DNA of 32,000 bases from an uncultured Nitrososphaerota archaeon (GTDB taxonomy: Archaea > Korarchaeota > Korarchaeia > Korarchaeales > Korarchaeaceae). A program made the position numbers and the translations under genes. Shown here piece after piece: positions 3,707-32,000 of the stretch; the stretch's first letter is position 1; each line of letters opens with the position of its first letter. The notes beneath the pieces are model-generated. The model worked only from the letters and a program-made list of their open reading frames with translations, had not been told where the DNA came from and made no database searches. The DNA lies in contig CAYZRF010000017.1 in the NCBI GenBank assembly GCA_964480775.1, positions 7,305 through 39,304 of the forward strand, read 5' to 3'.

Positions 3707-4034
3707 ACTCTTGATCTCCGATTGTTTAGTTATAAGTAATTATGTCGGCAGGTTCGACTGGGCCAGATGGAGAGATTTCTATTATTAAAATAGTGAGATT
3801 ATTGGAAGTGACAGGTAATTAAGATGTTCTCAGATTTCTGGCTAACTTGTTGGTTACCATGGTTCCAGTAGCTTCGGCCCCAAGATCGGAATTTTCATCG
3901 TTTTCAAATTGTAATTTCACTATGTGGTGCAGCTGTAGATTTCTGTACCCCTTTCTTATAGCTATAAGAATAAGCTAACAAATTAATAATCTAAGAAAAG
4001 AGAATTTTATCCAAAAATTTCTAATTTCTCATAG

Positions 4035-5345
4035 TTAGGATTCAGGGACTCCCATCTTTTCTTTTAGATAAATCAAAGTGCTTGTGGCAGCGGCTCTGGC
4101 ATGAGAAATGCTACTCATAATATCCATTGGACCGGTGCAGCATCCTGACAGAAATACACCATCGATTTGTGTCTCATTAACTGATCGTAGAGGATCTAAA
4201 ACCTTAAAGAAAGTATCTCCATTTATTTGAACGCCCAGCTGGTTTCCAACATTCCTAGCATGGCTTGAACCAGTTACTCCAGGAATCAAGATGACGAGGT
4301 CGACATTTAACTCCTCTAACTTCCATGTTCCTGCGTCAAAGATCCTTAAGGTTAACTTTCCCTCTTTATCTCTTATCTCAGAAGGAATTCCGTGGAGCAT
4401 AACGATGCCACTGTCTCTAGCGGTCTGATAAAATTCCTCGTGCATTCTTCCAGAAGCTCTTATGTCGTTGTAACAGACGTATACCTCTACCTCTTCCCTA
4501 TATAACTGCTTTATCTCGTATGCTTGTTTTAGTGCTGTCATGCATCCTATCCTGCAGCAGTGCTTTAGAAATCGTCTGTCTCTTGAACCAGCACATAAGA
4601 CAAAGGCAACTGATTTGGGTCTCTTCCCATCAGATGGTCTTACCACCTCTCCTTTAGTTGGCCCTCCTGGATCTAGCATCCTTTCTAATTCCAAGCTCGT
4701 AATTATGTTCTTATATCGGCCATATCCCAGCTCCTTTACCCTTGAAATGTCAAATAACTCCATCCCAGTGGCTAAAATCAAAGCCTTAACTTGGATTTTT
4801 GTTTCTTCTGGTCTTTCATCTAAGTTTATTGCATCATTTGGGCAGGCCTCGACGCAAGCATAACATTCCTCTCCTTTGAAATGAAGACATGCTCTTTCAT
4901 CTATTGCAAATCCCTCCGGAAAGGGCCTCACAGAAGGATAATCTATAGCCTTCCTTTTTCCTATACCGAGTTCATATTCTCTATTGTACTCGACTGGGCA
5001 TACTTCAGAACACTTCCCGCATGAGATGCACTTGTTTATGTCCACATGCCTAGGCTTCTTAATGATTTGAAGTTCAAAACCCTCTTCAGTCTTCTTTATA
5101 GCTTTAATTTCAACATTTGTCATTATCTGAATATTCTCTAAGTTTCTTAGCTCCTTGAACATCCCATCTAGTATGCTTGATGTTGGATCAAGCGTCGGGA
5201 ACACTTTGCTTAAAAGCGAAACATTTCCTCCTAAGCTGAAGTTTCTCTCAAGCAGGTAAACTCTCACACCTTGTTTTGAGAGGCATAGGGAAGACTCAAT
5301 GCCAGCTACTCCTCCTCCCACAACTGCTACCGGTCCTATAACCAT
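4035..5345 (-). CDS. hdrA: HdrA-like FAD/FeS oxidoreductase (short form of heterodisulfide reductase subunit A family)
   Basis: 436-aa ORF that starts directly with the dinucleotide-binding motif VAVVGGGVAGIE. An inserted ferredoxin domain carries CISCGKCSEVCP and CX7CYACVEACP. An HdrA-type CAGSRD...HCCRIGCMTALKQA segment follows. It lacks the N- and C-terminal extensions of the roughly 650-aa methanogen HdrA. Confidence 0.8.
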   Translation of the reverse strand: MVIGPVAVVGGGVAGIESSLCLSKQGVRVYLLERNFSLGGNVSLLSKVFPTLDPTSSILDGMFKELRNLENIQIMTNVEIKAIKKTEEGFELQIIKKPRHVDINKCISCGKCSEVCPVEYNREYELGIGKRKAIDYPSVRPFPEGFAIDERACLHFKGEECYACVEACPNDAINLDERPEETKIQVKALILATGMELFDISRVKELGYGRYKNIITSLELERMLDPGGPTKGEVVRPSDGKRPKSVAFVLCAGSRDRRFLKHCCRIGCMTALKQAYEIKQLYREEVEVYVCYNDIRASGRMHEEFYQTARDSGIVMLHGIPSEIRDKEGKLTLRIFDAGTWKLEELNVDLVILIPGVTGSSHARNVGNQLGVQINGDTFFKVLDPLRSVNETQIDGVFLSGCCTGPMDIMSSISHARAAATSTLIYLKEKMGVPES

Positions 5346-5449
5346 ATCTATCGGCCTCTACTCATTGTGTATTATTGCTTGGTTACTCATCACTGACACT
5401 GGATCTTTTTATGGTTAATCCTTAATCTTTTGAGGGCAGGAGGGGACAG

Positions 5450-5983
5450 ATGGCAAGCGGTATGTCTAGCAGCCTATTGGATCTGATGACTCTAAAAAGA
5501 GCAGACTGGAGTATTCTGAAGGAAATAGCTAAGAAAATTGGAGAACAAAACCCAAAGAGTTGCTTTGAATGTACGAAATGCACCAGCGGTTGTCCAGCAG
5601 CAGAATTCTTGGAGATGTATCCCCACAACATAGTGTGTGCCGTCAGGGAAGGACTAGCAGAGGAGATTATCAACTCTGATGTGATCTGGAGGTGTGCTCT
5701 CTGTCTTAAATGCAAGGAAAGGTGTCCTCAAGAAGTAGCGCCTTCGGATCTCATAATAGCTCTAAGAAATATCGCCACGGACCGGGGAGTTGGCGTTCCC
5801 GAAGACCTAAACTCCGTTCTCAACTCGATCATGGAAATTGGATACATTCATCCCCCTATGAAGGCCTTCTCGAGAAGGCTAAGGAAAACTTACACGCGGG
5901 AAGATCTTGGCCTGAAAGTTCTGAAGGGACCTAAGGATATGGATGCTTTCAGGGAGGCTCTGATGGCTGCCTTCGAAGAGTAA
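5450..5983 (+). CDS. hdrC: HdrC-like 2x[4Fe-4S] ferredoxin subunit
   Basis: 177-aa ORF with two CX2CX2CX3CP motifs (CFECTKCTSGCP, CALCLKCKERCP). A strong Shine-Dalgarno sequence, GGAGGGG, lies upstream of the ATG at 5450. Its stop overlaps the hdrB-like start (TAATG at 5981-5985). Confidence 0.78.
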   Translation: MASGMSSSLLDLMTLKRADWSILKEIAKKIGEQNPKSCFECTKCTSGCPAAEFLEMYPHNIVCAVREGLAEEIINSDVIWRCALCLKCKERCPQEVAPSDLIIALRNIATDRGVGVPEDLNSVLNSIMEIGYIHPPMKAFSRRLRKTYTREDLGLKVLKGPKDMDAFREALMAAFEE

Positions 5984-6879
5984 TGGGAGGGTTTCGATTG
6001 GGAAGCGATGGTCCGAGATATGCTCTCTATCTGGGATGTATGATAGCGAATGAGGAGTATGCATATGAGATGTCCACTAGAGAAATCATGAGGGAGCTTG
6101 GCGTTGAATTAGTAGATCTAGAAGGAGAAAGCTGTTGTGGTAGTCCAATCCGCAGCTTGAACACAAGATTATGGCTATACCTTGCAGCCAGAAACCTTTC
6201 TCTTGCCGAAAGAACGGGATTAGATGTTCTTTGTCTCTGTAGTGGGTGCTTCGAATCCCTGCTCGAAGCAAAAAATTTCCTAGAGAACAGCGAAAGTCTA
6301 AAGAAGTGGGTTAACGAGGCGTTATCTCTTGAAGGGCTTGAGTATACAGGCAGGTGTAAGGTGAAGCATCTTGTCCAGGTTTTGCATGACGACTTGGGCG
6401 TTGAAAGACTGAGAGAGCACGTAAAAAATGAGCTTAAAGGTCTAAAATTAGCATCTCATCCAGGGTGTCATCTGCTTAGGCCAAGCAAGGTGCTTAGAGC
6501 AGATGATCCAGAGGATCCGAGGAAACTGGATGAACTTATCGAAGCAAGCGGCGCTGAGGCTATCGACTATCCAGAAAAACTAGATTGTTGCGGAGCAGGA
6601 CTGCTTCTAATGAAACCAGAGGGGACTATGAGCTTTGCTGGGACTAAACTAAAGGCTTTGGCAGCCAGAGAAGTGGATGGTTTGGTAACGGTGTGTCCTG
6701 CTTGTCATGTCGTGTTCGATAAAAGACAGGGGGCCATAAGCAGACAGGTGGGCGTCGATAAGAGGATTCCAATAATTTACTACCCACAGCTACTGGGACT
6801 GGCCTTTGGTATAGAGTCTGAGAGGTTGGGAATCCATCTGAATAGCAGCCCTGTGGAGGAAATCCTATCCAAGATATAG
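5983..6879 (+). CDS. hdrB: HdrB-like subunit with two CCG (cysteine-rich) domains
   Basis: 298-aa ORF with two complete CCG-domain patterns. The first is GC...CCGSP...CLCSGC. The second is GCHLL...CCGAG...VCPACH. It is translationally coupled to the hdrC-like gene. Confidence 0.82.
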   Translation: MGGFRLGSDGPRYALYLGCMIANEEYAYEMSTREIMRELGVELVDLEGESCCGSPIRSLNTRLWLYLAARNLSLAERTGLDVLCLCSGCFESLLEAKNFLENSESLKKWVNEALSLEGLEYTGRCKVKHLVQVLHDDLGVERLREHVKNELKGLKLASHPGCHLLRPSKVLRADDPEDPRKLDELIEASGAEAIDYPEKLDCCGAGLLLMKPEGTMSFAGTKLKALAAREVDGLVTVCPACHVVFDKRQGAISRQVGVDKRIPIIYYPQLLGLAFGIESERLGIHLNSSPVEEILSKI

Positions 6880-6881
6880 AT

Positions 6882-7670
6882 TCATTTCCCCTTGAACTCA
6901 GGCTTTCTCTTTGAAAGAAAAGCCTGTAGTCCCTCTTTTGCATCTTCGGTTGAAAAAACAGCGCTAAAAGCGTGCTTCTCTAGTTCTAACCCTACATCAA
7001 TGGGAACCTGAGAACCGAAGATCAAGACTCGTTTTATAAGACTTTGAGCTATTGTAGGTCCTTCAGCGATTCTTTCTGCTAGAGACATGACCTCCTCTCT
7101 AAGCTTCTCCTGAGGAACAACTTTGTGGACAAGTCCCATGTCCAAGGCTTCTGAAGCAGAGATTCTATCTCCAAACATCAAAAATTCCATTGCTCTGGAC
7201 AAACCTATGATCCTAGCCAGCCTTTGAGTGGCTCCCCATCCAGGAATAATCCCCAATTTAACTTCGGGGTTTCCTAGTTGAGCATTTTCGACCGATATTC
7301 TGAAATCACAGGCCAAGGTGAGTTCAAATCCACCACCTAGAGCATAGCCGTTTATAGCTGCTATTACAGGAACACGAAGACTTTCAATTTTCTTCATCAA
7401 TCTCTGCCCTATCTCGGATAGCTCCAGAGCCCCCTGAGAATCTAGCTTAGATAACAATCCTAAGTCAGCACCAGCGCAAAAGGCCTTTTCTCCCTCGCCG
7501 GTTATTACAACACATTTTACTTCCTTATCTTCTTCTACCTTGTCCATGACATCTGAGAGCTCCTTTAACATCTTCATGTTGAAGACGTTCAGCTTATCTG
7601 GTCTGTTAAGATAAACCCAGAGAACCCCCTTCTCCTTCTCCACCCTTAACGTCTCATAATTAGTATACAT
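6882..7670 (-). CDS. Enoyl-CoA hydratase (crotonase family)
   Basis: Crotonase hallmarks are present: VVITGEGEKAFCAGADLG, AAINGYALGGGFELTLACDFR, GIIPGWGATQRL. The ORF track extends to 7715. I prefer the ATG at 7668-7670 (MYTNYETLRVEKEKGVLWVYLNRP), which matches crotonase N-termini and overlaps the upstream gene by only 11 nt. Confidence 0.88.
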   Translation of the reverse strand: MYTNYETLRVEKEKGVLWVYLNRPDKLNVFNMKMLKELSDVMDKVEEDKEVKCVVITGEGEKAFCAGADLGLLSKLDSQGALELSEIGQRLMKKIESLRVPVIAAINGYALGGGFELTLACDFRISVENAQLGNPEVKLGIIPGWGATQRLARIIGLSRAMEFLMFGDRISASEALDMGLVHKVVPQEKLREEVMSLAERIAEGPTIAQSLIKRVLIFGSQVPIDVGLELEKHAFSAVFSTEDAKEGLQAFLSKRKPEFKGK

Positions 7671-8844
7671 AGAACCCTCTCCCTGCCTCTCTACCCACCC
7701 AACCTCTCTTAACATAATCCTTTAAAATAGGGCATGGCTTGTAAATATCCTCTCCTCTCTCTGAGAACAGAGCTTCAAGCTTACTAACAACTTCCTCGAT
7801 TCCTAACTCATCTGCCAGTTCTAAGGGCCCTTTGGGCCAACCAGCCCCCAGTTTCATCGCTGTATCCACGTCTTTCGTTTCAGCCACCTCATCCATAACT
7901 ATCCAAGCGGCCTCATTCACTGCAACTGAAAGAAATTCTAAGGCATCATACTCTTTTGCCAGCTCTTTTGGTATGTTTGGTCTTCCTGCACTCCAATCAT
8001 AGAAACCTCTGCCTGTTTTCCTTCCTAAATTGCCTTGGGCAATCAGCTCATCTATGATAGGGCAGTACTTGAGCCTGTCTCCGTAAGCATCAGATAGGAT
8101 TCTCATTATCTCTGCCAGTACATCTAGCCCTATGTAATCGGCTAGCTCAAACAGACCCATTGGGAGTCTAGCACTATATTTAGCTGCAGCATCAATCTCC
8201 TCTTTCTTTGCTCTTCCTAGGTGAACGTCCCAAAACACCTTGTTAAACAATGCACCAAGTATCCTGTTCACGATGAAACCTCTGAAATCCTTCTTTACAA
8301 GCACCGGCGTCTTTCCTAAAGCTTTTGCAAGCTCCATTACTCTTCTAAGCGTTTCTTCACTTGTATAATCCCCTTTTATCACTTCAACTAAAGCCATAAT
8401 CTGAGGAGGGTTGAAAAAGTGCATTCCAGCGACTTTATCAGGTCTTCTGGTAATTTTTGAAATCTCGGTTATGCTAAGGCTTGATGTATTTGAGGTAAGG
8501 ATAGCCTCCCTTGGAGTTACCTGATCAAGTTTTTGAAATACCAATGTTTTGAGTTTCATTTTCTCTGGAACCGCCTCTATCGCTAGATCTACATCGGTTA
8601 GATCTTCATAGCTCGTTGTCGGCTTTATTCTGGAAAAAGAAGCCTCAGCTTCTTCTTTACCTATTTTACCTTTCTCCATGAGCTTATTAATGCTCCATTT
8701 TATTCTTTCCATGGCCTTATCAAGTATTTCATCGCTTATGTCGACGATGTATACTTTTAGTCCAGCCATGGCACAAAGCTGGGCAATACCATGACCCATA
8801 ACTCCAGCTCCCACAACAGCTACGGTTTCCACCTTCTTACCCAT
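7660..8844 (-). CDS. 3-hydroxyacyl-CoA dehydrogenase (NAD-binding; extended C-terminal domain)
   Basis: 394-aa ORF with the Rossmann motif VAVVGAGVMGHGIAQ, then the SNTSSL and HFFNPP motifs typical of the 3HCDH family. A second C-terminal 3HCDH_C-like repeat follows (WPKGPLELADELG). Confidence 0.9.
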   Translation of the reverse strand: MGKKVETVAVVGAGVMGHGIAQLCAMAGLKVYIVDISDEILDKAMERIKWSINKLMEKGKIGKEEAEASFSRIKPTTSYEDLTDVDLAIEAVPEKMKLKTLVFQKLDQVTPREAILTSNTSSLSITEISKITRRPDKVAGMHFFNPPQIMALVEVIKGDYTSEETLRRVMELAKALGKTPVLVKKDFRGFIVNRILGALFNKVFWDVHLGRAKKEEIDAAAKYSARLPMGLFELADYIGLDVLAEIMRILSDAYGDRLKYCPIIDELIAQGNLGRKTGRGFYDWSAGRPNIPKELAKEYDALEFLSVAVNEAAWIVMDEVAETKDVDTAMKLGAGWPKGPLELADELGIEEVVSKLEALFSERGEDIYKPCPILKDYVKRGWVGREAGRGFYVY

Positions 8845-9273
8845 TCAACCACCCTGTTCTTCCCAAGGCACAAACCTATAGGTCAAAGAACCATGTTCTT
8901 CTTTTGCTAAAAGCCTAACTTTCATGCCAATTGAGACGTGCTCTCCTTCGTACCAAGCTAAAACTTTGACACCTTCTTTCATTCTCGCAACAACTACTGT
9001 ATAAGGAGCTTCACCTGAAAAGCTAGCTGGTGCCGCCATTATCCTAGTATAAGTTTCGACTATGCCTTCACCGCTTAATTCAACCCACTCTACATCAGAA
9101 CTTAAGCAGGAAGGACATGTAGTTGAAGGGGGAAACCTTAACGTTTGACAGTTCTTACATCTTGTGGCTAAGACCTTTCCTTCCTTTAGACCGTTCCAAA
9201 ACTTTTCAATTCTCGATATAGGGATCCTGTACACCAAGCTCAAGGTTTTTGACGTTATAAATGGCTCGCTCAC
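8845..9273 (-). CDS. DUF35 family OB-fold/zinc-ribbon protein (thiolase-associated)
   Basis: 142-aa ORF with the zinc-ribbon CKNCQTLRFPPSTTCPSC followed by an OB-like region. It lies directly between the thiolase and hydroxyacyl-CoA dehydrogenase genes, with 6-nt and 0-nt gaps. Confidence 0.85.
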   Translation of the reverse strand: MSEPFITSKTLSLVYRIPISRIEKFWNGLKEGKVLATRCKNCQTLRFPPSTTCPSCLSSDVEWVELSGEGIVETYTRIMAAPASFSGEAPYTVVVARMKEGVKVLAWYEGEHVSIGMKVRLLAKEEHGSLTYRFVPWEEQGG

Positions 9274-9279
9274 TCTACT

Positions 9280-10443
9280 TCACCTTCCCAACACAGTCAC
9301 AAAACAATACTGCCCAGTTCCTCCAACATTATGAGCCAGGGCTATGTATTTATTCAAGGGAACCTGCCTACTAGGTTCCACTTCTTCCCTCAACTGTTTT
9401 GTGAGTTCAACTATCATTGAAATTCCAGTAGCTCCCAAAGGATGTCCTTTTGCCTTCAGTCCTCCATCGATGTTCACAGGGATTCTACCACCAATTTCGG
9501 TTTCTCCCTCTCTTATCAATTTCGCGCCTTCGCCCTTTTTGCAAAACCCCAAATCCTCATAAGCAAGGATTTCTGCTATGGTAAAGCAGTCATGAACTTC
9601 CGCTACCTCTATCTCTTTAGCTTCTACTTTCGCCATCCTGTAAGCCATTTGAGCTGCTTCCATACTAGATTGAAGCCCAATGAAATTAGTTCTGTTTACC
9701 ATTGTTGAAGTATCCGAAGATACTCCTATACCTTTTATCCAAACAGGGGTATCTACTCCTATCTCTTTTACCTTGTCCTTTGATGCTAAAACCACCGCCG
9801 CAGCCCCATCGCTTATCGGACAACAGTCATAAAGCTTAAGCGGCCAAGCGATCATTCTAGAAGAAAGTACATCCTCGACTGTTATCTCTTTTTGGAACTG
9901 AGCAAGGGGGTTCCTAGCACCATACTTGTGGTTTTTGACAGCAACAAGTGCTAGATCTTCTTCAGTAGTTCCATACTTTTTCATGTGGGCCGTGGCATAG
10001 AGGGCATAGTAAGCAGGGAAGGTAACCCCAAACTCATGAAATTCCCAGAAGTAGGATCCTGCTCTTCCTAAGATCTCTATCATGGTAGGAGTTTCTACCT
10101 CTGTCATCTTTTCTACTCCAAGGGCTACTGCTACATCAAACATTCCTGATGAGACAGCAAACCAAGCTGCATAGAAAGCGGCGCTTCCACTTGCACATGC
10201 CGCTTCGCACCTCATGGTTGCAATTCCTTGTAGTCCTGACTGTTCAGCCACTAGTACTGCAGGAGTGATGTCCTCGGAACTCAGCCCAAAGTTTCCCACG
10301 GAAAGAAATTTTATCTCTTTTTTATTCACGCCAGCGTTCTTAATAGCACTCTTCAGAGCATCTACGGATAGTTCGGAGAGGCTAGCATCTCTCCTTTTTC
10401 CAAACTTAGTTTGTCCAACCCCAATTACAGCTACTTCCTTCAT
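9280..10443 (-). CDS. Thiolase (acetyl-CoA C-acyltransferase, archaeal/SCP-x-like type)
   Basis: 387-aa ORF with the active-site Cys region RCEAACASGSAAF and C-terminal GHPLGATG and NVGGTGQ motifs. A Shine-Dalgarno sequence, AGGGGGGAA, lies upstream of the ATG. Confidence 0.9.
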   Translation of the reverse strand: MKEVAVIGVGQTKFGKRRDASLSELSVDALKSAIKNAGVNKKEIKFLSVGNFGLSSEDITPAVLVAEQSGLQGIATMRCEAACASGSAAFYAAWFAVSSGMFDVAVALGVEKMTEVETPTMIEILGRAGSYFWEFHEFGVTFPAYYALYATAHMKKYGTTEEDLALVAVKNHKYGARNPLAQFQKEITVEDVLSSRMIAWPLKLYDCCPISDGAAAVVLASKDKVKEIGVDTPVWIKGIGVSSDTSTMVNRTNFIGLQSSMEAAQMAYRMAKVEAKEIEVAEVHDCFTIAEILAYEDLGFCKKGEGAKLIREGETEIGGRIPVNIDGGLKAKGHPLGATGISMIVELTKQLREEVEPSRQVPLNKYIALAHNVGGTGQYCFVTVLGR

Positions 10444-13897: not shown

Positions 13898-14785
13898 CTA
13901 ATGTGAATTATGCGAAATGTTTTTCGTTCTATTCTGATCACTCTTCCTTCTTCTTAATATAACTAGAGGGCGGTGTTCTACCTTCTCTAACATATTCCAG
14001 CTCACTCCAGTAAGAGATGTACCGAACTTATTTGCCATGTCCCATACGGTTGGTCCGGCTCCGTGGCCCCTTACCCTATCTGCTCTTTCAGCCATATCCA
14101 AGATCTCTTCAACATCGGCTTGCAGTCCACAAACGGCTATAGGAGTTGATCTACGCTTTAAGTGAAGGATCCTTCCTATAAAATAGGCTATAGGACCTAG
14201 ATCTCTAATTCCCTTGACAAAGCTTTTTCTTGGTGCTATGTGGTAGGATTTGAAAGAATAGGTCTTATCGCTGTCGACTATCATGACGGCCACATTTTTA
14301 CCGGTTTTCTTCAAGATTTGCTTCTTTATGTCCTCAGCCACCTGTTCTGCCTGCATTAGAGGTAAAGCAACGAAGGAATAGGCAACGTTGGACCCATCGA
14401 TACCTCCTTCCGATCCGTGTCTTAGCGCAGAGAACAGGCCGACCTCGTCAATGCAAACTTGCTTGTGTTGAGCACCCTCTGGAATAGGATAGTTCCTGAA
14501 TCTATTGATGTTCTCTCTCTTCATCCTTAGAATAGGACCTAAGAAAAGACCCCACACGATCTTCATCCAAAATAAAGCCAAAAAATATGCTAATATTCCA
14601 GGTTTTACCTTGCTTTCGTCAACTATGTTTCCTAAAGCCACAGAAATAGCTTTTTCAGATATTACAAGGATGTCTCCGTCTCTTAACTTAGGGCCTGCCC
14701 TTTTGATTATGTCATCTATATAGCTCGTATTTGGCCTCCAGTAACTCGTTTTGATGGCTATTGCTTTGAATTTTCGCAATTTCAT
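13898..14785 (-). CDS. CofE-like protein (F420-0:gamma-glutamyl ligase family, divergent)
   Basis: 295-aa ORF. GDILVISEKAISVALG, GGIDGSNV and VAVMIVDSD align with the CofE motifs GDVLVV.S.VISKAEG, GIDASNV and VGVIITDTN. It also carries a hydrophobic insertion, GILAYFLALFWMKIVWGLFLGPIL, that I do not recall in canonical CofE. Confidence 0.6.
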   Translation of the reverse strand: MKLRKFKAIAIKTSYWRPNTSYIDDIIKRAGPKLRDGDILVISEKAISVALGNIVDESKVKPGILAYFLALFWMKIVWGLFLGPILRMKRENINRFRNYPIPEGAQHKQVCIDEVGLFSALRHGSEGGIDGSNVAYSFVALPLMQAEQVAEDIKKQILKKTGKNVAVMIVDSDKTYSFKSYHIAPRKSFVKGIRDLGPIAYFIGRILHLKRRSTPIAVCGLQADVEEILDMAERADRVRGHGAGPTVWDMANKFGTSLTGVSWNMLEKVEHRPLVILRRRKSDQNRTKNISHNSH

Positions 14786-14910: not shown

Positions 14911-15237
14911 TTAGCCAAATTCCTTTATCATAGAGTCTCCTGTGCTTTTTACACGTTCCCAGGTCCTTTCTAGCTCATCATCGTAAACTCCTCTCATTTT
15001 ACATCTTTCATATGTTTCTAAGAACTTGATGAAGCTCCTTAGGATTTCATGCCGTTGTACCCTCAAAACCTCAGAATCTACATTTATTTCCTTAATTAAA
15101 GCTCCACCAACTGGGATTCGATCTCCCAGTATGTCCATGAGAACTAGTTCTCCATTTTGATATGATGTCCTTACAATATCCTCAGCAATCTTTTCTTCTC
15201 CATCTTTTTCAGTCAGAATTACAGTAAATTCACACAT
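14911..15237 (-). CDS. cooT: CooT-family putative nickel-binding protein with a C-terminal helical extension
   Basis: The first ~62 residues, MCEFTVILTEKDGEEKIAEDIVRTSYQNGELVLMDILGDRIPVGGALIKEINVDSEVLRVQ, match the CooT pattern: Cys2, MCE..V.L...G.EE...EDV, DILG, I.EI. The remaining ~45 residues form an extra segment, HEILRSFIKFLETYERCKMRG.... Confidence 0.65.
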   Translation of the reverse strand: MCEFTVILTEKDGEEKIAEDIVRTSYQNGELVLMDILGDRIPVGGALIKEINVDSEVLRVQRHEILRSFIKFLETYERCKMRGVYDDELERTWERVKSTGDSMIKEFG

Positions 15238-15394: not shown

Positions 15395-15700
15395 ATGGAA
15401 AAGCTTAAGTCCTTAGATCCGGAATTAAAGCGATTTTTAGTAAATCTGGGGCAAGAACAGAGGTCCTCACTAAAATGGGACTTGCTCGGCTATCTTCTTA
15501 CCTTAAAAGCCAAGGCATGTGCTGGAGCTCCAATTGAACAAGTGAAACTCATGTTGTTATATTGGAAATATGATCTTTTGGAGTCTGATGAAGGCCTAGG
15601 AACTCTAATCGAAATATGCAAGGCATTAGATTCAGGAAAAACGGCAGAAATCTTAGCCAAAAATGGTCTAAATGAGCTTGCAGAACGTATTAAGGGGTAA
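15395..15700 (+). CDS. Hypothetical small helical protein, probably co-transcribed with mer
   Basis: 101-aa ORF with ATG preceded by AAAGGG. Its amino-acid composition matches the neighbouring genes. It ends 13 nt before the mer ATG, and the mer Shine-Dalgarno sequence lies in that spacer. I recognise no family. Confidence 0.45.
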   Translation: MEKLKSLDPELKRFLVNLGQEQRSSLKWDLLGYLLTLKAKACAGAPIEQVKLMLLYWKYDLLESDEGLGTLIEICKALDSGKTAEILAKNGLNELAERIKG

Positions 15701-17947: not shown

Positions 17948-18718
17948 TTAATTCAATAATCCTATCTTCTTGGCGATTTTCTCAGCTGCTTTTAAGGCTG
18001 GTGAATTGCTCGGGAGTTCAAGAAGAGACCTACCTTCTATGTTGAACCTTGTGACATTTGGATCTGAGGGAATGAAACCAGCGAATCCAACACCCATACT
18101 CTTAGCTTTCTCTTCAAGTAAGCTAACAAGCTCTTCTGGAAATCTATTTCCCACAAGATATATTTTTCCCACATTTATGTGAACCTCATGAGCAAGTTCC
18201 TTTATCCTTTCTGCTGTCTTAAAGCCCATTGATGAGGGATCTGTAACGATCAACATTACGTCTACATCTCTGTCTGTTCTCCTGCTTAGATGCTCGAGTC
18301 CTGCTTCCATATCCATAATTGTTATGTCATAATTCTTCGTGATGGCATCAAGTATCCTCGTGAGAACGCTGTTCACATAGCAATAACATCCCTCCCCTTC
18401 ACTCCTACCCATAACCAAGAGGTCAAATTCTGGGAGTTCTACTAGAGTTTCATAAACCCATGCCTCAAGCAAGTCCGCTTTAGATACTCCTAGCGGAAGT
18501 TCTCCTCTTTCTATCTTTTTTTTGAGTTCATCTGCCACAATTCCAACGTTTTTCTCAGCTTTAACCCCTAAGACCTCTTGCAGGTTTGATGCTGGATCTG
18601 CATCAACCATAAGGATGGAGTCGTTTTTGTTATTATCTAATAAAGTTCTAAGTAGCAAGCCAGCTAAGGTGGTCTTACCCGTTCCTCCCTTGCCAGAAAT
18701 GGAAATAACAAAGCTCAT
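17948..18718 (-). CDS. cooC: CooC-type nickel-insertion ATPase (MinD/ParA-class P-loop), paralog 1
   Basis: 256-aa ORF with the deviant Walker A motif ISGKGGTGKTT, then VDADP and a metal-binding CXC motif (GEGCYCYVN). The Shine-Dalgarno sequence is AGGGGCTGAAA-ATG. Confidence 0.88.
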   Translation of the reverse strand: MSFVISISGKGGTGKTTLAGLLLRTLLDNNKNDSILMVDADPASNLQEVLGVKAEKNVGIVADELKKKIERGELPLGVSKADLLEAWVYETLVELPEFDLLVMGRSEGEGCYCYVNSVLTRILDAITKNYDITIMDMEAGLEHLSRRTDRDVDVMLIVTDPSSMGFKTAERIKELAHEVHINVGKIYLVGNRFPEELVSLLEEKAKSMGVGFAGFIPSDPNVTRFNIEGRSLLELPSNSPALKAAEKIAKKIGLLN

Positions 18719-18829: not shown

Positions 18830-20707
18830 TCAACTTCTCCTAATTTTTCTGCTGGCTTCCCACCAAGTTGGGAACAGGTCCTTTTTCCCAGGAAGAAAGT
18901 AAGCAGCAGTATACTCATCCATGAAGTCTGGATCTTTAAGAAGATCAAAGTACGTTGTAAGCCTAACTACCTCCTCTGCCTCATACCTGTATTTCACCGA
19001 AACGAGGGTAAGATAAGCTCCAGCTACAGAACCATTTCCCAGGTAAGTTATCCTAGCCTTGGGAAGCTCCGGTATTAAACCTATGGCAATAGCGCTATTT
19101 AAGTCCAGGTAATTTCCAAAAGCTCCACAAATAAACATCTGTTCTATGTCCTGAACGCTTAATCTCATCTTTTTCAATAAAACTCCGATAGCAGAGCACG
19201 CTGCAGCCTTGGAGTCGATTAAATTTGCTATGTCTTTCTCAGTTATCACAATGTCCTTACCAATCGCAGTCTTTTCGGCTGGAACAACTACGTATTCATA
19301 TCCATCAATTCCCTGCCTTATTAATGGCGTCTTTAACTCAGCATTTATCTTACCAAGGCTGTCAACTATTCCATTTCGGAACATCTCGGATAGTAAATCA
19401 ATTAATCCCGAACCACATATTCCCTTAGGTTTTACATCTCCTATTACACGATATTCTGCCTTCAGTGTAACAGGATCTATTTTAACGTGATCTATCGCTC
19501 CTTCAATCGCTCTAGTTCCAAACCTGATTCCCCAACCCTCAAAGGCAGGACCAGCAGCAGCGGTAGTGGTTACGAACCATGATTCGCAGCCTAGAACAGC
19601 CTCCACGTTTGTTCCGATATCCACGAGCAATGATATTTTAGGAGATTTATGCATTCCAGATACAAGGATGTCTCCTATAGCATCTCCTCCAAAGAATCTA
19701 CTTACACAAGGAAGACAGTAGACCCTTGCTGCTTCATGAACTTCAAGTTCAATCTCCTTAGCTTCCAAAAACAAAGGGTCTGATGGTACCTTAGCTCCAG
19801 GGTCTAAGAGGGGAGACGCGTCTTTCCCTGCGAAAAGGTATGTCATGACTGTATTTCCAGCAACACAAACGTCGACTATCTCCTCTTTTTTAACCTGGTA
19901 TTTCGAAGTTAATTTAGAAATAAGTTCATTTATCGTATCAACAGCCGCTTTCTGAATCTTTTTAGTGCCGTCTTCCTTTTCCATAGTATATCCTATCCTA
20001 GATACAACGTCTTCACCATACATTAGCTGCTTGTTATATCCTGATTCATATCCAAGGATCTCCCCAGTAGTTAGGTCAACTAGGTAGGCGACTATTTTTG
20101 TAGTTCCTATGTCAACAGCTAGCCCAAAGAGTCTATTTGTTGTATTGCCCTCCTCTAATCCTAATACTTCGACTTTCCCTCCATATCTTCTAATAATTAG
20201 TGTGGCTCCTTCTGGGCAACATTTAGGCATTGCGTTAAGTTTCTCTTGCACATGTTTTGGAAAGCTCTCGATTCCTACGAAATACAATATTTTCTCAAGC
20301 TGATTACCAGCTTTGTCTGCTAGTTGAGTTGGTTTCACAAAGACTTTCCTAACGGCTGGCTCTGGAATAACTTTAGGGACTTTCGCTTCCATTTGAATTT
20401 TTTGACCTTCAAGTCTTGTTTCTGGAGGAATAAAGACCTCACAATCAGATGTCGGAAATGTTAAACAGGCTAGGACGTATCCTTGCTTTAACTCTTCGTC
20501 TGTCAATAATTTCTCTTTTGGATCGTAATTAAATTGAACACTACCTTTCTGTACAATAATTTTACATTTTCCACAACCGCCCTTGCCACCACATACACTT
20601 CTAAGAGTTATTCCCGCCGATCTAGCTGCTTCCAATAAGTTAGTATCTTTGCTAGCAGATACCCTCCTCCCGTATGGCTGAAAGACTATGGTAAATTCTC
20701 TAGTCAT
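18830..20707 (-). CDS. RACo-type reductive activator of the corrinoid/FeS protein ([2Fe-2S] ferredoxin domain plus ASKHA ATPase domain)
   Basis: The N-terminus carries a plant-type ferredoxin motif, SVCGGKGGCGKCKI...LACL. A large sugar-kinase/actin-like domain follows, with GLAVDIGTTKIVAYLVD and LVDIGTNVEAV phosphate motifs. I prefer the ATG at 20707, preceded by AGGTGA, over the GTG at 20716. Confidence 0.82.
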   Translation of the reverse strand: MTREFTIVFQPYGRRVSASKDTNLLEAARSAGITLRSVCGGKGGCGKCKIIVQKGSVQFNYDPKEKLLTDEELKQGYVLACLTFPTSDCEVFIPPETRLEGQKIQMEAKVPKVIPEPAVRKVFVKPTQLADKAGNQLEKILYFVGIESFPKHVQEKLNAMPKCCPEGATLIIRRYGGKVEVLGLEEGNTTNRLFGLAVDIGTTKIVAYLVDLTTGEILGYESGYNKQLMYGEDVVSRIGYTMEKEDGTKKIQKAAVDTINELISKLTSKYQVKKEEIVDVCVAGNTVMTYLFAGKDASPLLDPGAKVPSDPLFLEAKEIELEVHEAARVYCLPCVSRFFGGDAIGDILVSGMHKSPKISLLVDIGTNVEAVLGCESWFVTTTAAAGPAFEGWGIRFGTRAIEGAIDHVKIDPVTLKAEYRVIGDVKPKGICGSGLIDLLSEMFRNGIVDSLGKINAELKTPLIRQGIDGYEYVVVPAEKTAIGKDIVITEKDIANLIDSKAAACSAIGVLLKKMRLSVQDIEQMFICGAFGNYLDLNSAIAIGLIPELPKARITYLGNGSVAGAYLTLVSVKYRYEAEEVVRLTTYFDLLKDPDFMDEYTAAYFLPGKKDLFPTWWEASRKIRRS

Positions 20708-20936
20708 TAGGTTCACCTAAATGGTGAGTTATGGATTATTGTACAGAAGCGATGAAGTTTACTTGAATTTAAACTTAGTTAAGCGCTCATAGCTAGCTTG
20801 TATGCTTCCTTAAAGAATAATTTGATCTTATCCCTATCCTGTAAAAAGAAGGAAGATTGGGCAGGTATAGAAAAAAATAACATTAGTTATATTTAGTGCT
20901 CATCGCAATCCTTGTAGTTATAAAGATGTATGGGGT

Positions 20937-28251: not shown

Positions 28252-29043
28252 TTATTGTTTATGAAAATATTTCTCTCTAAGCTTGTCTTTCAATTCTTTA
28301 ATTGCTCTAACGGCTTCACAGCTTGGATCATAATCTAAAAGAGCTTTTCCTGTAATTTCAGCCTTTATCACCGCTTCATCGTATGGAACATAACCTATTG
28401 TAGGCACTCCTAGCTCTTCTATTTTTTTAAAAATGAGTCTGGCTTGTTCTTCTCCCTTCACTTTGTTCCCCACGGCTAGAAAATTCTTTACTCCTATGTC
28501 TTTAGAAAGTTTCAATATTCTCTTGGCCGTTATTATAGACTTGGCCCCGGGTTCTACAATACATAACATGCAGTTCACTCCTCTGGCGGTTCCTCTTCCA
28601 AGATGTTCTAAACCAGCAACCATATCCATAATCACAATGTCTTTAGTCCCTACGACAAGATGAGACATCAAAGCACGTAAAAAGGCATTTTCAGGGCACA
28701 AACACCCAGAATTTCCTGCTCTAACTGTTCCCATTACAATTAGCTTAACTCCATCAGGACCAATTATTCCAAACTTATCTACAATGTCATCAACTTTTGG
28801 GTTCATCCGTAGTATGGCACCAAAGGAAGATTCTGTTCTAGATCGAATTAACTCAGCGTTTTCAGAGATTGGGACAATTTTAGAAGCAACTGAGTCCTCA
28901 ATTCCCAGCGATATATGCAAGTTCAGATTTGGATCTGCATCCACCGCTAGCACGTTATAACCATCCTTGGCAAGAAGTCTAGCTAGAGTTCCAGCTATTG
29001 TAGTCTTCCCAACACCACCTTTTCCAACTACGGCGATCTTCAT
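28252..29043 (-). CDS. cooC: CooC-type nickel-insertion ATPase, paralog 2
   Basis: MKIAVVGKGGVGKTTIAGTLARLL (deviant Walker A), VDADPN, and CXC motif NSGCLCPEN. I prefer the ATG at 29043 over the ORF-track start at 29151. The extra 36 residues lack P-loop-family similarity and would overrun the divergent promoter. Confidence 0.86.
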   Translation of the reverse strand: MKIAVVGKGGVGKTTIAGTLARLLAKDGYNVLAVDADPNLNLHISLGIEDSVASKIVPISENAELIRSRTESSFGAILRMNPKVDDIVDKFGIIGPDGVKLIVMGTVRAGNSGCLCPENAFLRALMSHLVVGTKDIVIMDMVAGLEHLGRGTARGVNCMLCIVEPGAKSIITAKRILKLSKDIGVKNFLAVGNKVKGEEQARLIFKKIEELGVPTIGYVPYDEAVIKAEITGKALLDYDPSCEAVRAIKELKDKLREKYFHKQ

Positions 29044-29144
29044 TCTTCTCAAAGATGTTTTGCAACCTCGATATAATGATAATGGTACTACACTCTTGAG
29101 TAAATACGTTTTAATGTCATTCAAGACAATCCCCACACGATGAT
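29044..29144. promoter_or_regulatory. Divergent promoter region between cooC paralog 2 and the nucleotidyltransferase-like gene
   Basis: This 101-nt spacer contains two AT boxes, GATATAATGATAATGG (29070-29085) and TAAATACGTTTTAATG (29101-29116). Each lies about 25-35 nt from one of the two start codons, which suggests back-to-back promoters with very short leaders. Confidence 0.3.
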
Positions 29145-30170
29145 ATGACACACAGAAAAGAAAGTTGGATGGAAGGTGACTTCATAGAGAACTTAGACGG
29201 AGTAATCTTCAATGTCAAAGGTAATCTTCATCCAAAAAACTCCGTTGTAGCTTTTGTTAGGTATGTACCTGATTCGAAAGGTGATAGAAGAAGAGATTCT
29301 ATTATTTACAGAAAGCTTCACTCTCTAAATGAGAAGATCCAGTTTCTTAGAGCAAATTATCCTCAATATTTAGTGAAGGATCCAGTATTTGACGAAAAAG
29401 TCTGTGAAGTTCCTAACAATGAAATACTAAGGTTCTATGATCCAAAAAGGAAAGCTCAAGAGATTCTTCTTTTGGAGGAGACAGATTTCTTAAAACTAAA
29501 AATCAAGAGGTTTATAAGGCTTATCTCATGCCTCTCAAACGTTCCATCCTCTTCCTTTGGGGTTTCTGGGTCTGTATTGGTAGACCTTCACAAAGCCAGC
29601 TCAGACATGGATCCATTAGTCTATGGATCTGAAAACTGCTACAAAGTATATGAAACACTTGTAGAGCTGCATAAATGCTCAAAAACAGTTAGAAGTCTAA
29701 ATAAGAGAGAGATTGAGAGATTATACAAGGATAAAATTAAAGACACTCTCTTTGAGTTTGAAGCTTTCGCCAGATCAATGAAAGGTAGGGTGATGGAGGG
29801 CATCTTTGAGGGCACGCTATACTCAATAAGATTTCTAAAGGATCCAAGAGAAATCAAAGAAGAGTATAGCAAAATATCGTTCAAAAACCTAGGAGAGGTA
29901 GAAATAGAGGGAAGGGTAATTGACGCAAAAGAGGCTATCTTCACTCCGTGTCGCTACACACTAGATGATGTCAGGATTATTAGTGGAAGTTCTCCTGAGG
30001 ATATTAGAGAAGTGTGCTCCTTCCGATCTAGATTTTGCGATATAGCCAAGGAGAGGGATGTGATAAGAGCAAGAGGTAAATTGGAGAGGGTCATAACAAG
30101 AGAGGATGAATATCTAAGGGTTTTGGTGGGAGGAAAGCGCTCTCACTTTATGGTGAGATTAATTACGTAA
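29145..30170 (+). CDS. Uncharacterised Pol-beta-superfamily nucleotidyltransferase-like protein with a C-terminal beta-barrel (OB-like) region, paralog A
   Basis: 341-aa ORF with the nucleotidyltransferase core FGVSGSVLVDLHKASSDMDPLVYG (G-S ... D-x-D). It aligns over its full length with the convergent neighbour: N-terminal NVKGNLHP...FVRYVP and C-terminal EDIREV...RARGKLERV...YLRVLVG. ATG at 29169 is an alternative start. Confidence 0.72.
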   Translation: MTHRKESWMEGDFIENLDGVIFNVKGNLHPKNSVVAFVRYVPDSKGDRRRDSIIYRKLHSLNEKIQFLRANYPQYLVKDPVFDEKVCEVPNNEILRFYDPKRKAQEILLLEETDFLKLKIKRFIRLISCLSNVPSSSFGVSGSVLVDLHKASSDMDPLVYGSENCYKVYETLVELHKCSKTVRSLNKREIERLYKDKIKDTLFEFEAFARSMKGRVMEGIFEGTLYSIRFLKDPREIKEEYSKISFKNLGEVEIEGRVIDAKEAIFTPCRYTLDDVRIISGSSPEDIREVCSFRSRFCDIAKERDVIRARGKLERVITREDEYLRVLVGGKRSHFMVRLIT

Positions 30171-31250
30171 CCAGCTCTTTGGCAGAATAAAGTCCCTTCC
30201 TTTAGCTTCAAAAGATCCGACTAACACTCTAAGGTATGTTGAACCATCCTCAACGTTCTTCACAGACTCAAGCTTTCCTCTGACAACTATCTCCTCTCCT
30301 TCTTCAGCTATTCCAGAAAAGAGACCTTCGTAACTGACAACTTCCCTTATCTCAGGACGAGACTTATTATCAATTGTCTTAGCCTCTCTTATTGAATACT
30401 TTGAGGGCATGAAAAAAGAGTCCCTACAGTCTTCCACGAAACAGCTAATTGTGATCATGCCAAGCGATTGGTATTTCTTTTGACCGTACCTTTCCTCCAC
30501 CTCTGCTTCTGTCTTAACAGGATGGATGGAAAATTGTCTCCCTCTAAAAAGTCCCCTATCCCTCTTTTTTCTACAAAGCTTAGCTGCTATCTTCGGTTCC
30601 AGAAAGTATATCTTAGCTACATCCTTAATACGGCGTTCTAGAAGCTCTCCACTTAGCGGTTCAAGCCCATCATAGCTCTCATATAGTTGTGGTAGCTGCT
30701 CCAAGAGCTTTACAGAATTCTCTCTGCTGTACACAATTAGATCTATATCAGAGAACCTAGGGTTATGTATGCCCAAAAGTAAGGAGCCAGTAAGTCCGAA
30801 GTTCTCTATAGCTATTTTACATTCTCTTGAAAGGATTGAGATGAGTTCAACTACCTCTTCCTCTAACGGATCCCGGTTCTCCTTAGAAAAAATCTGTTTT
30901 ACCCTTTCTTCTGGAAGGAAGTGGACTTTTATGTCTTCTATAGGCACGGCCGTTATCAAAATATTCATAAAGGGATCCTCATAGAGGTACTCTGGTTTCT
31001 TCTCACTCAAGTACTCCTGTGTCGAGAGAACTCCAACGGTACTATAATATGGCAATATCCTGTTATACCCTATGTTGCCCTTTTTCCACTTAGTACTCTC
31101 ACTTATTCTCTCTGGTATATACTTTAGATATGAAATAACCCTGCTGGGTGGATGAACATTTCCAATGACACAAAAGAACATTCCTTCTTTGTCCATGAGA
31201 TAATCTCTGTCTCTGAAGCAAGTCTTAGCTCTTGTTTGATCCTGAGCCAT
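30159..31250 (-). CDS. Uncharacterised Pol-beta-superfamily nucleotidyltransferase-like protein with a C-terminal beta-barrel (OB-like) region, paralog B
   Basis: 363-aa ORF with the core FGLTGSLLLGIHNPRFSDIDLIVYS (G-S ... D-x-D). It shares blocks with paralog A: CVIGNVHP...YLKYIP and PEIREV...VVRGKLESV...YLRVLVG. The two 3' ends overlap by 12 nt. Confidence 0.72.
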   Translation of the reverse strand: MAQDQTRAKTCFRDRDYLMDKEGMFFCVIGNVHPPSRVISYLKYIPERISESTKWKKGNIGYNRILPYYSTVGVLSTQEYLSEKKPEYLYEDPFMNILITAVPIEDIKVHFLPEERVKQIFSKENRDPLEEEVVELISILSRECKIAIENFGLTGSLLLGIHNPRFSDIDLIVYSRENSVKLLEQLPQLYESYDGLEPLSGELLERRIKDVAKIYFLEPKIAAKLCRKKRDRGLFRGRQFSIHPVKTEAEVEERYGQKKYQSLGMITISCFVEDCRDSFFMPSKYSIREAKTIDNKSRPEIREVVSYEGLFSGIAEEGEEIVVRGKLESVKNVEDGSTYLRVLVGSFEAKGRDFILPKSWLRN

Positions 31251-31269: not shown

Positions 31270-32000
31270 TCAAGACATCAACGACTTCTTAAGCATATCA
31301 TAATCCGTTTTGCCAGAAGCAAACGAACTACCACTTTTCCTATTAAAAACGCTAATTGCGCCAGGTGCAAAGAAAGCAGGATCAAGCTTTGACCAGTCAA
31401 AATCAACTTCCTTTAAGGTCTCGTATGAGGTCTTTCCATAGTAGGCGGAAGTTGAGGCTGGAGCATCCTCTACAAGTTCTTTTAGCTTAGAATCGTCGTC
31501 AAAGTCAACCGTATATGCTGTAGATCCTCCGTATATTAGTGCATCCTCCTCTCTGGCTAAGGTAACCTTTTCATCTGGATGAATTGGCATTATTGGCGCT
31601 GAACCAGTCCCAAAAACGACTTTCTTTGGGTCAAATCCCAAGTAATCAAGTCTATACATCCCTACCTCAGCTATCCTTCCAGATACTTGGACAGAGCCAG
31701 CTGTAGAGTTCGTGGTTGTTAATACGAGGTAAACATCCTCCGGTTTGACGCCGCACTTTTCAGCCACGTACTTTGCTACATCATCTCCAGGCATTTTATT
31801 CGTTTCCAAGATTAAGATCGCAACGTCGCTATCATCCCTATACTCTATCTTTTCGAAGACCTTCTTTGGTTTCAAGGCTAGAGCTCTAGCTGGACCTGAT
31901 GCCATGCAGAAGAAGCTCTCGGTCTTAACACCCCATCCTGCAAGCTGAGATCCGAGCAAAGAGATGGCAGGATAATCTGTGCTAACGAAAATAGTCGGTA
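31270..32000 (-). CDS. mch: Methenyltetrahydromethanopterin cyclohydrolase (5' end outside the window)
   Basis: The frame stays open upstream of the ORF-track start, which is an internal TTG/Leu. It reads ...PTIFVSTDYPAISLLGSQLAGWGVK, which matches the conserved Mch segment. The rest is collinear with Mch (MASGPARALA, GSAPIMP). Confidence 0.9.
   Translation of the reverse strand, partial: PTIFVSTDYPAISLLGSQLAGWGVKTESFFCMASGPARALALKPKKVFEKIEYRDDSDVAILILETNKMPGDDVAKYVAEKCGVKPEDVYLVLTTTNSTAGSVQVSGRIAEVGMYRLDYLGFDPKKVVFGTGSAPIMPIHPDEKVTLAREEDALIYGGSTAYTVDFDDDSKLKELVEDAPASTSAYYGKTSYETLKEVDFDWSKLDPAFFAPGAISVFNRKSGSSFASGKTDYDMLKKSLMS

Follow-up and report, generated by a model that had tools for sequence, protein, structure and literature searches.

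What is the substrate of two related nucleotidyltransferases whose genes meet tail to tail among the one-carbon (C1) genes of an uncultured korarchaeon? The question arises from 32,000 nucleotides of contig CAYZRF010000017.1 (assembly GCA_964480775.1, positions 7,305 to 39,304, family Korarchaeaceae), the whole of which is called the window here. Two open reading frames (ORFs) within it, A and B, lie on opposite strands with overlapping 3' ends, and a first-pass annotation had described them as end-to-end paralogues of 341 and 363 amino acids, uncharacterised archaeal nucleotidyltransferases that might act on an RNA 3' end, a cofactor or a protein. The analysis presented here places A and B in a distinct three-domain family within a known superfamily, one with neither a whole-protein Pfam or NCBIfam model nor a solved relative, and indicates that this family probably has a part in making a C1 carrier of the methanopterin or methanofuran type. 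The link by genomic context to C1-carrier genes is new, and it narrows the likely substrate class to a C1-carrier cofactor.

The paralogy of the two proteins was borne out by BLASTP, which aligned residues 2-329 of A with residues 6-345 of B, nearly the full length of both, at 30% identity over 341 columns (E 7e-49), a similarity far above chance. Translation of A may start at Met9 (29169), since conservation begins only at residue 10. The family carries the label "predicted nucleotidyltransferase" at JGI and "hypothetical protein" at NCBI. The sole Pfam match of A, B and their relatives is NTP_transf_2 (PF01909), which scores 23.3 bits against B, above the cut-off of 21, and 19.8 bits against A (E 0.0011), slightly below it; 84 of 100 family members match at E<=0.1, the best at 5.6e-9. 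NCBIfam has no model for the family, no model of either library spans the whole protein, and sequence and profile searches of the PDB gave chance-level matches only, with no related chain. The profile searches assigned the pair to no well-characterised family beyond this generic domain, and the description of A and B as uncharacterised archaeal nucleotidyltransferases stands.

The N-terminal, Pol-beta-core and C-terminal motifs read from the two sequences proved to be the most conserved parts of the family. Both proteins contain the signature of the Pol-beta superfamily, an hG[GS] helix-turn motif followed by a [DE]x[DE] strand. In an alignment of 133 copies from five clades, seven residues are invariant (B numbering): P113; G152, G155 and S156 of the G-S motif; D168 and D170 of D-x-D; and E328, the glutamate of the GKLE motif. 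The core motifs of B correspond to G139/G142/S143 and D154-x-D156 of A. Residues G30, H33 and P34 of the GNxHP block are kept in 95-97% of the copies, and Y44, P282 and Y285 are nearly invariant. Because the signature residues are invariant across all 133 copies, A and B look catalytically competent, as had been proposed, and so do the paralogues of every clade. A search of the same alignment for a third carboxylate found no invariant acidic residue in the core strands past D170; the candidates are the near-invariant E250 and the invariant E328, the latter in the C-terminal domain.

Models of the two proteins were made with AlphaFold2, B at full length from a 100-sequence alignment (predicted local distance difference test score, pLDDT, 95.5; predicted template modelling score, pTM, 0.92) and A as residues 1-235 only, to expose the domains other than the C-terminal one (pLDDT 93.6). 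The B model consists of a beta-rich N-terminal domain (17-111), a helical linker with an alpha/beta core (113-245) and a beta barrel (258-357). Foldseek searches of the PDB with whole B returned matches limited to the barrel, with probabilities of 0.91-0.99 and, over about 100 residues, to the E. coli single-stranded DNA-binding protein SSB (1sru, 0.98), RPA (4gop_B, 0.99) and the N-domain of LysRS (7f6w, 0.92); in BFVD the barrel matched viral SSBs. These matches identify the C-terminal barrel, earlier noted only as beta-rich, as an OB fold. The truncated A model matched the palm domains of poly(A) polymerase, Cid1, GLD-2, the class I CCA-adding enzyme of A. fulgidus and AadA. The best match was poly(A) polymerase 1q78 (E 8e-3, probability 0.94), and all were weak (template modelling, TM, score 0.2-0.3) but consistent in fold throughout. 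A structure search had been suggested as a way of defining the domains; it assigned the palm core and the OB fold, but the N-terminal domain had no match, either with the A model against the PDB or with the B model against the PDB and BFVD. The N-terminal beta domain is a new one, and the architecture of N-domain, Pol-beta core and OB fold has neither a whole-protein Pfam model nor a solved structure.

These likenesses raise the alternative that A and B are RNA-directed nucleotidyltransferases that tail or repair the 3' ends of RNA or tRNA, with the OB fold holding the single strand and any cofactor context coincidental. The OB fold resembles those of SSB, RPA and the anticodon-binding domain of a tRNA synthetase, and the nearest palm domains are those of poly(A), poly(U) and CCA-adding enzymes. 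Pol-beta terminal nucleotidyltransferases (poly(A) polymerase, Cid1 and the terminal uridylyltransferases, class I CCA-adding enzymes) share the palm, the G-S motif and D-x-D with A and B and gave the best structural matches, over about 135-185 columns; those matches are nonetheless weak (E about 0.01) and cover a generic palm only, whereas A and B lack the PAP-associated central, tail or body domains and any PAP-type RNA-binding domain, and instead have another N-terminal domain and an OB-fold C-terminus. No tRNA or RNA-processing genes recur among the neighbours, C1-cofactor genes do recur in several independent gene orders (see below), and an Rfam scan found no RNA gene in the window. We therefore regard an RNA target as decidedly improbable. 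TiaS, the archaeal tRNA-Ile2 agmatidine synthetase and likewise a multi-domain enzyme with an OB fold, had been named for comparison in the first-pass annotation and was rejected: it was absent from the PDB sequence and profile matches and from the top 50 Foldseek matches of either model, A and B have no zinc ribbon, and their genomic context is not tRNA-related. Also rejected was an MNT/HEPN pair, in which a small nucleotidyltransferase of about 100-150 amino acids accompanies a HEPN protein; A and B are far larger, at 341 and 363 residues in three domains, the partner is a paralogue, and a HEPN gene was seen in two loci only, not adjoining a family member (the PADLOC library was not searched).

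The family is large and, by the names of its sources, archaeal. Homologue searches gave 926 relatives at E<=1e-3 among representatives of clusters at 50% identity and 687 word-filtered homologues of B; at least 433 copies fitting B-type patterns were found in GTDB species genomes, scanned with a B-only alignment, and more than 578 A-type stretches in JGI metagenomes, scanned with an A-only alignment. Named sources are Korarchaeota, Asgard archaea and many Thermoproteota (Bathyarchaeia, Methanomethylicia, Ignisphaera, Vulcanisaeta, Desulfurococcales, Sulfolobales), and the nearest relatives of the window proteins come from metagenome-assembled genomes (MAGs) of Korarchaeota or "Thermoproteota" from hydrothermal sediments. 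A homologue search from a divergent representative returned Bathyarchaeota and Thermoproteota only. A neighbour-joining tree of the 133 copies resolved two main clades, B with 81 copies and A with 34, and three smaller ones, C, D and E; the two window proteins fall in the main clades that bear their letters. The window thus holds one orthologue of each main subfamily, and as A and B fall in separate subfamily clades, the duplication is old. Two MAGs each have two clade-B copies on separate contigs (L006/L011 and L012/L027), which indicates duplication inside subfamily B as well; in both, one copy sits in a Fwd-Mch-B-MptN setting, whereas no C1 genes surround the second copy. The DPANN or bacterial labels on a few short contigs with family members probably result from mis-binning. 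For P0088 (about 2 kb, Acidobacteriota) and P0484 (about 3.9 kb, Krumholzibacteriaceae), mis-binning is likelier than true bacterial membership.

The main new result concerns the genes around family members. ORFs were called in the fetched loci and clustered by BLAST, recurrent clusters were annotated with Pfam and NCBIfam, and the genes for CitG-like protein, MptA/E/G/H, DmrX, DUF447, DUF1464, Ftr, Mch, Fwd and Mfn were counted as C1-carrier genes. At least one of them lies within 10 kb in 62 of 82 B-centred genome loci and in 42 of 79 A-centred metagenome loci, many of the latter on short contigs. In the B-centred set the most frequent are Ftr (27 loci) and a CitG-family protein (PF01874, E 1.5e-57; 27 of 81 loci, in 18 of them within 200 nt of a family member), followed by Mch (19), FwdA, FwdB and FwdC (17 each), an MptN/RimK-like ATP-grasp protein (17), a CofE-like ligase (15), a MobA-like protein (12), Mtd (11), MfnB (9), and MfnE-like and MfnF-like proteins (8 each). 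Also recurrent are dihydromethanopterin reductase (DmrX, TIGR02700, 302 bits; 8 loci), GTP cyclohydrolase MptA (317 bits; 6 loci), and MptE-like protein, MptH, MptG, DUF447 and DUF1464 (5-7 each), with DmrX, MptA, the dihydropteroate-synthase-like MptH (401 bits) and MptG, of the beta-RFAP synthase family, all above their cut-offs. CitG-family genes occur in 32 of the 79 A-centred loci.

The order of these genes varies by lineage, which argues against a single inherited accident. Korarchaeia-like and Methanomethylicia loci read FwdBAC-Mch-B, and Ignisphaera reads CitG>B>. Bathyarchaeia have B>A<CitG<DUF447<MptE>DmrX> (L045, L055) and Jordarchaeia MptG>DUF1464>DmrX>MptH>MptA>A>B> (L052, L053); other loci read MptH<DmrX<MptA>MptE<DUF1464>MptG<DUF447<A> (L151, L153) and DUF447>CitG>A>B< (L159), Desulfurococcaceae B>MfnB>MfnE<MfnF<HisAF>, and many sediment contigs Mch<FwdCABD<CitG<(ECF S-like)>A>D<C<. 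The family is embedded in clusters of bona fide methanopterin biosynthesis genes. Of the three classes of target first put forward, the recurrence of methanopterin, methanofuran and C1 clusters supports a cofactor and points away from RNA or protein.

A protein target would mean nucleotidylation (AMPylation or uridylylation) in the manner of GlnE or GlnD, regulating the enzymes of the C1 pathway. Pol-beta enzymes can modify proteins, and the genes do lie beside those of the Mch, Ftr and Fwd enzymes; the biosynthetic genes (CitG, MptA, MptE, MptG, MptH, DmrX) are, however, linked at least as tightly as those of the pathway enzymes, and Pfam and NCBIfam searches detected no sensor or regulatory domain, leaving this explanation highly improbable.

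Tetrahydromethanopterin carries one-carbon units in methanogenesis, anaerobic methane oxidation and the archaeal Wood-Ljungdahl pathway, and has at its end an alpha-linked ribose 5-phosphate in ester linkage with 2-hydroxyglutarate. To our knowledge the enzymes of the late side chain (ribitol formation, ribosylation, hydroxyglutarate coupling) have never been identified, and we know of no genes assigned to the last two of these steps, either by White in 1996 or in later reviews; a literature search likewise found no assignment for them. Pol-beta enzymes move the alpha-phosphate-linked part of a ribose 5'-triphosphate onto a hydroxyl, and CitG and MdcB form 2'-(5''-triphosphoribosyl)-3'-dephospho-CoA from ATP. 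The reading that we favour, tentatively and at somewhat less than an even chance, is that the family provides a methanopterin side-chain enzyme that would act in the manner of CitX/MdcG, downstream of the CitG-like enzyme. Its narrower form, in which the family would catalyse the specific step that makes the phosphodiester between ribose 5-phosphate and hydroxyglutarate, is possible and, on balance, a little doubtful. In this scheme the CitG-like enzyme would transfer an ATP-derived 5-triphospho-alpha-D-ribosyl group onto the ribitol hydroxyl of the pterin-aminophenyl-ribitol intermediate, releasing adenine. The nucleotidyltransferase would then take the resulting ribose 5'-triphosphate as its "nucleotide" and pass its ribosyl-5-phosphate end on to a hydroxyl group, that of (S)-2-hydroxyglutarate or of a lineage-specific acceptor, with release of pyrophosphate, to give the phosphodiester of tetrahydromethanopterin. 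The two paralogues would form a heteromer, or would serve successive or alternative acceptors. The 4-nt overlaps of tandem genes in Asgard loci fit co-made subunits of a heteromer, and the two to four paralogues of Bathyarchaeia fit different acceptors.

The precedent for such a division of labour is bacterial. According to PMC5534430, MdcB and MdcG jointly install a 5-phosphoribosyl phosphodiester, CitX and MdcG join the triphosphoribosyl product to a serine hydroxyl with loss of pyrophosphate, and MdcG is related to nucleotidyltransferases (Hoenke et al. 2000, cited there). The CitG homologue is orf7 of the bacterial methanopterin-linked mch-orf5-orf7 island (PMC3615186, PMC11533326), and another is found in Methanobacterium, a methanogen without a known use for CitG (PMC7386643). 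The hydroxyglutaryl-phosphate unit of tetrahydromethanopterin is absent from bacterial dephospho-methanopterin (PMC8141765). With neither the phosphate nor the hydroxyglutarate to add, such bacteria would not need the second enzyme. The resemblance between the two systems lies in the setting and the product: a CitG-family gene stands beside a gene with the Pol-beta G-S and D-x-D signature both in E. coli, where citX and citG are adjacent, and in the archaeal loci, and the proposed product is again a phosphodiester of ribose 5-phosphate to a hydroxyl. In contrast to CitX and MdcG, which are apo-ACP 2'-(5''-phosphoribosyl)-3'-dephospho-CoA transferases, the archaeal proteins are about twice as long, with an extra N-terminal domain and the OB fold, they occur as sets of two to four paralogues, and their acceptor would be a small hydroxy acid in place of the serine of an acyl carrier protein. 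No citrate-lyase or malonate-decarboxylase genes were among the annotated recurrent neighbour clusters, unlabelled neighbours not having been searched for them.

Several points weigh against methanopterin side-chain synthesis by a CitX-like route. Homology to CitX was rejected, a 100-sequence family profile scoring a probability of only 0.2 against E. coli CitX in hhalign, and none of 100 family members matched the Pfam CitX (PF03802) or MdcG models at E<=0.1, so that the link to CitX/MdcG is one of analogy only. White's cell-extract experiments reportedly pointed to phosphoribosyl pyrophosphate as ribosyl donor and to a separate ATP-dependent coupling step. OB folds are commoner in nucleic-acid binding than in small-molecule enzymes. 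No Euryarchaeota appear among the named matches of the homologue searches; classical methanogens may thus lack the family, which would then not be the universal enzyme for the step. The window itself has no CitG-like gene, and many neighbours of the family elsewhere are methanofuran genes (MfnB, MfnE-like, MfnF-like, MfnD-like, MptN/MyfB-like, CofE/MyfA-like, HisA/F-like, Fwd). The context tables come from our own ORF calling and BLAST clustering, in which related genomes are not independent samples, and the proposed phosphodiester chemistry is drawn from context and analogy.

Those methanofuran neighbours suggest another explanation, namely that the family acts in methanofuran biosynthesis or another C1-carrier step, for instance the activation or attachment of a side-chain unit or the nucleotidyl activation of a phosphorylated intermediate, the CitG-like neighbour being a separate enzyme. 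Subfamily B directly adjoins Ftr in 12 loci, the MptN/MyfB-like ATP-grasp gene in 11 and MfnB in 4; it stands next to MfnB-MfnE-MfnF-HisA/F strings in Desulfurococcaceae, and the bacterial homologues Orf5, OrfY and Orf17 are methylofuran genes (PMC8141765). Subfamily A, however, has CitG as its nearest and most frequent companion, a direct neighbour 11 times, together with methanopterin genes. The enzymes MfnA-F already complete the core pathway to methanofuran. The methanofurans that we know of contain neither ribose nor a phosphodiester, and so offer no obvious place for a Pol-beta transfer to a hydroxyl. On this evidence we consider a role in methanofuran synthesis unlikely. A further route to the same methanopterin end product may resemble that of CofC and CofD in F420 synthesis, where a nucleotide-activated intermediate leads to a phosphodiester between a 2-hydroxy acid and a polyol or sugar hydroxyl. 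The fold of CofC is MobA-like and of the Rossmann type, that of CofD is different, and there the activated partner is the phospho-acid and not the ribosyl side; MobA-like genes are frequent near the family.

For methanopterin side-chain synthesis the family is a concrete, widespread and well-modelled candidate (pLDDT 94-96) with a defined CitG-like partner and defined substrates. Our literature search found no link between the family, or CitG, and methanopterin synthesis. In a broader proposal A and B, joined in a heteromer or acting one after the other, would supply the activity that archaea need to complete the methanopterin side chain: with an architecture not seen before, they would couple the CitG-made 5-triphosphoribosyl intermediate to 2-hydroxyglutarate, and clades C, D and E would add lineage-specific head groups. 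This proposal is somewhat unlikely; if true, Thermoproteota and Asgard archaea would make structurally diverse, undescribed methanopterin variants. The two to four paralogues in each Bathyarchaeia genome suggest that the side chain may differ among uncultured archaeal lineages, and any such difference would affect genome-based reconstruction of C1 metabolism.

Is the convergent arrangement seen in the window part of the function? In the 82 loci selected through B, B and A are tail to tail in 17 (gaps of -12 to +20 nt; Korarchaeia-like loci, many Bathyarchaeia, some Thermoprotei), in tandem in 13 (A>B> 12, B>A> 1; Asgard, Hecatella, others) and head to head in three; 14 loci combine B with clades C, D or E, and B stands alone within 10 kb in 33, among them all of Ignisphaera and Vulcanisaeta and most Methanomethylicia. 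The remaining two are accounted for by a locus without a called copy and one counted both as tandem and with C, D or E. Six of the tandem loci have 4-nt overlaps, five of them A>B> and one B>A>. Of the 34 A copies, 29 directly adjoin B. Another paralogue is present in 46 of the 79 A-centred metagenome loci, where the usual tail-to-tail partner is clade D and not B, A and a D gene converging in 25 of the 53 loci with downstream room, mostly at -31 to +5 nt. Whether the paralogues are always convergent had been posed as a question; the tight tail-to-tail pair does recur, but some loci lack it and others arrange the genes differently.

The first-pass annotation had inferred that the overlap leaves no room for terminators. 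If the overlap were functional, convergent transcription would make the two messenger RNAs antisense to each other and set the ratio of A to B, possibly alongside the enzymatic role. In favour of this, Korarchaeia-like, Bathyarchaeia and Thermoprotei loci repeatedly show tail-to-tail pairs, at gaps of about -31 to +20 nt. The stop codons of A and B do share the 12 nt first reported, TTAATTACGTAA, which contain the palindrome TTACGTAA; two close relatives (L002, L003), however, have an equal 12-nt overlap with other letters, CTACGAGGCTAA. The letters thus vary even among near relatives, which makes the palindrome incidental and rules out a conserved sequence element. Furthermore, overlapping convergent genes are frequent in compact archaeal genomes, and Asgard and other lineages hold A and B in tandem, with the short overlaps typical of co-translation, or head to head. 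Antisense control is therefore improbable, and the 3' overlap is a compact inherited tail-to-tail layout. Origin by horizontal transfer or from a mobile element was also rejected, the G+C content of the two genes (0.36-0.42) being similar to that of neighbouring genes and the Rfam scan of the window having found no RNA gene.

The window is an archaeal Wood-Ljungdahl region with Mtd, a CofE-like protein, CooT, a Mer-like protein, an FrhB-like protein, two cooC genes, RACo, cdhABCDE and mch (Table 1). The pair does lie beside cooC and mch, as the first-pass annotation had stated, but the two neighbours differ in value. The informative one, overlooked then, is mch, directly upstream of B on the same strand across a 19-nt gap; Mch directly adjoins subfamily B in 9 loci. 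Adjacency to cooC is confined to Korarchaeia-like loci, which rules out a general link to cooC and carbon monoxide dehydrogenase maturation, and cooC is probably context and not part of the system. The 101-nt spacer reported between cooC and A holds only with a cooC ATG start at 29043 (MKIAVVGKGGVGKT, the start used by homologues), whereas the mechanically called ORF (28252-29151, minus strand) extends to a GTG at 29151 and overlaps the start of A by 7 nt. The extra 37 residues are probably untranslated, since homologues begin at the internal MKIAVVGKGG (29043).

Table 1. Features of the A/B locus and of the neighbouring C1 genes; positions count from the first letter of the window and residues follow each protein's own numbering.
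Feature	Position	Strand	Description and basis
ORF A (paralogue A)	29145..30170	+	341 aa; subfamily A; ORF call, BLASTP, neighbour-joining clade A
A N-terminal beta-rich domain	29181..29438	+	Residues ~13-98; GNLHP block (G26, H29, P30); AlphaFold2 model, G/H/P conservation
A helical linker and Pol-beta nucleotidyltransferase core	29442..29837	+	Residues ~100-231; Pfam, Foldseek, motifs
A motif G139-x-x-G142-S143	29559-29573	+	
A motif S153-D154-M-D156	29601-29612	+	
A C-terminal OB-fold domain	29874..30149	+	Residues ~244-335; P268, Y271, GKLE motif (E314); by alignment to B
Shared 3' segment with both stop codons	30159..30170	.	12 nt, TTAATTACGTAA
ORF B (paralogue B)	30159..31250	-	363 aa; subfamily B; ORF call, neighbour-joining clade B
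B C-terminal OB-fold domain	30180..30479	-	Residues 258-357; P282, Y285, invariant E328; Foldseek
B helical linker and Pol-beta nucleotidyltransferase core	30516..30914	-	Residues 113-245; Pfam, motifs
B motif S167-D168-I-D170	30741-30752	-	Codons read directly in the sequence
B motif G152-x-x-G155-S156	30783-30797	-	
B N-terminal beta-rich domain	30918..31202	-	Residues 17-111; GNVHP (G30, H33, P34); AlphaFold2 secondary structure
mch (methenyl-tetrahydromethanopterin cyclohydrolase)	31270..32000, past window end	-	Pfam MCH E 2.5e-78; frame open to end
cooC-type nickel-insertion ATPase gene	28252..29043	-	Divergent from A; Pfam CbiA and Fer4_NifH
CooC nickel-insertion accessory gene, other copy	17948-18718	-	
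CooT nickel-insertion accessory gene	14911-15237	-	
RACo-type activase	18830-20716		
F420-0:gamma-glutamyl ligase relative	13898-14785	-	PF01996, 67 bits

Other proteins travel with the family or with its methanopterin neighbours. DUF447 (L031, L034, L045, L051, L055, L065, L067) and DUF1464 (L038, L045, L052, L053, L065, L097, L151, L153, L159) accompany MptA, MptE, MptG, MptH, DmrX and the CitG-like gene, and are further candidates for missing methanopterin steps, such as the reduction of the ribofuranosyl group to ribitol. Directly upstream of subfamily A, dozens of loci (among them L084, L086, L087, L101, L106, L117, L121, L126, L134, L144, L146 and L161; also L015, L023, L033 and L073) encode a multi-pass membrane protein of about 250 amino acids with a weak likeness to the S component of energy-coupling factor (ECF) transporters (PF07155, 24 bits, under the cut-off). 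Its gene stands beside CbiQ/EcfT-like and ATP-binding cassette ATPase genes in some genomes, and the protein may serve in the uptake of a precursor or of the finished cofactor. Bathyarchaeia-type contigs (L048, L062, L072, L073, L081, L136, L137) and many A-centred loci bring three or four paralogues together (A> D< C< ... B>), an asparagine-synthase-like gene often adjoins clade C, and an unannotated membrane-protein gene (cluster c52) lies between that gene and B.

Elsewhere in the window, the cdh operon has one CooT and two CooC genes on its flanks. The F420-0:gamma-glutamyl ligase relative belongs to a cluster found in 15 family loci, another member of which scores far under the NCBIfam CofE cut-off; it may be a MyfA/OrfY-type glutamate ligase of furan cofactors and not CofE. 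An ORF of 101 amino acids (15395-15700, plus strand) has no Pfam match and shares 29 nt with the beginning of the Mer-like gene, and is perhaps not genuine. Positions 449-10443, immediately upstream of the Wood-Ljungdahl region, hold a full beta-oxidation-type set: acyl-CoA dehydrogenase, electron-transfer flavoprotein alpha and beta, an FAD/4Fe-4S oxidoreductase, a CCG-domain HdrD-like protein, enoyl-CoA hydratase, 3-hydroxyacyl-CoA dehydrogenase, and a thiolase with its DUF35-type OB/zinc-ribbon partner.

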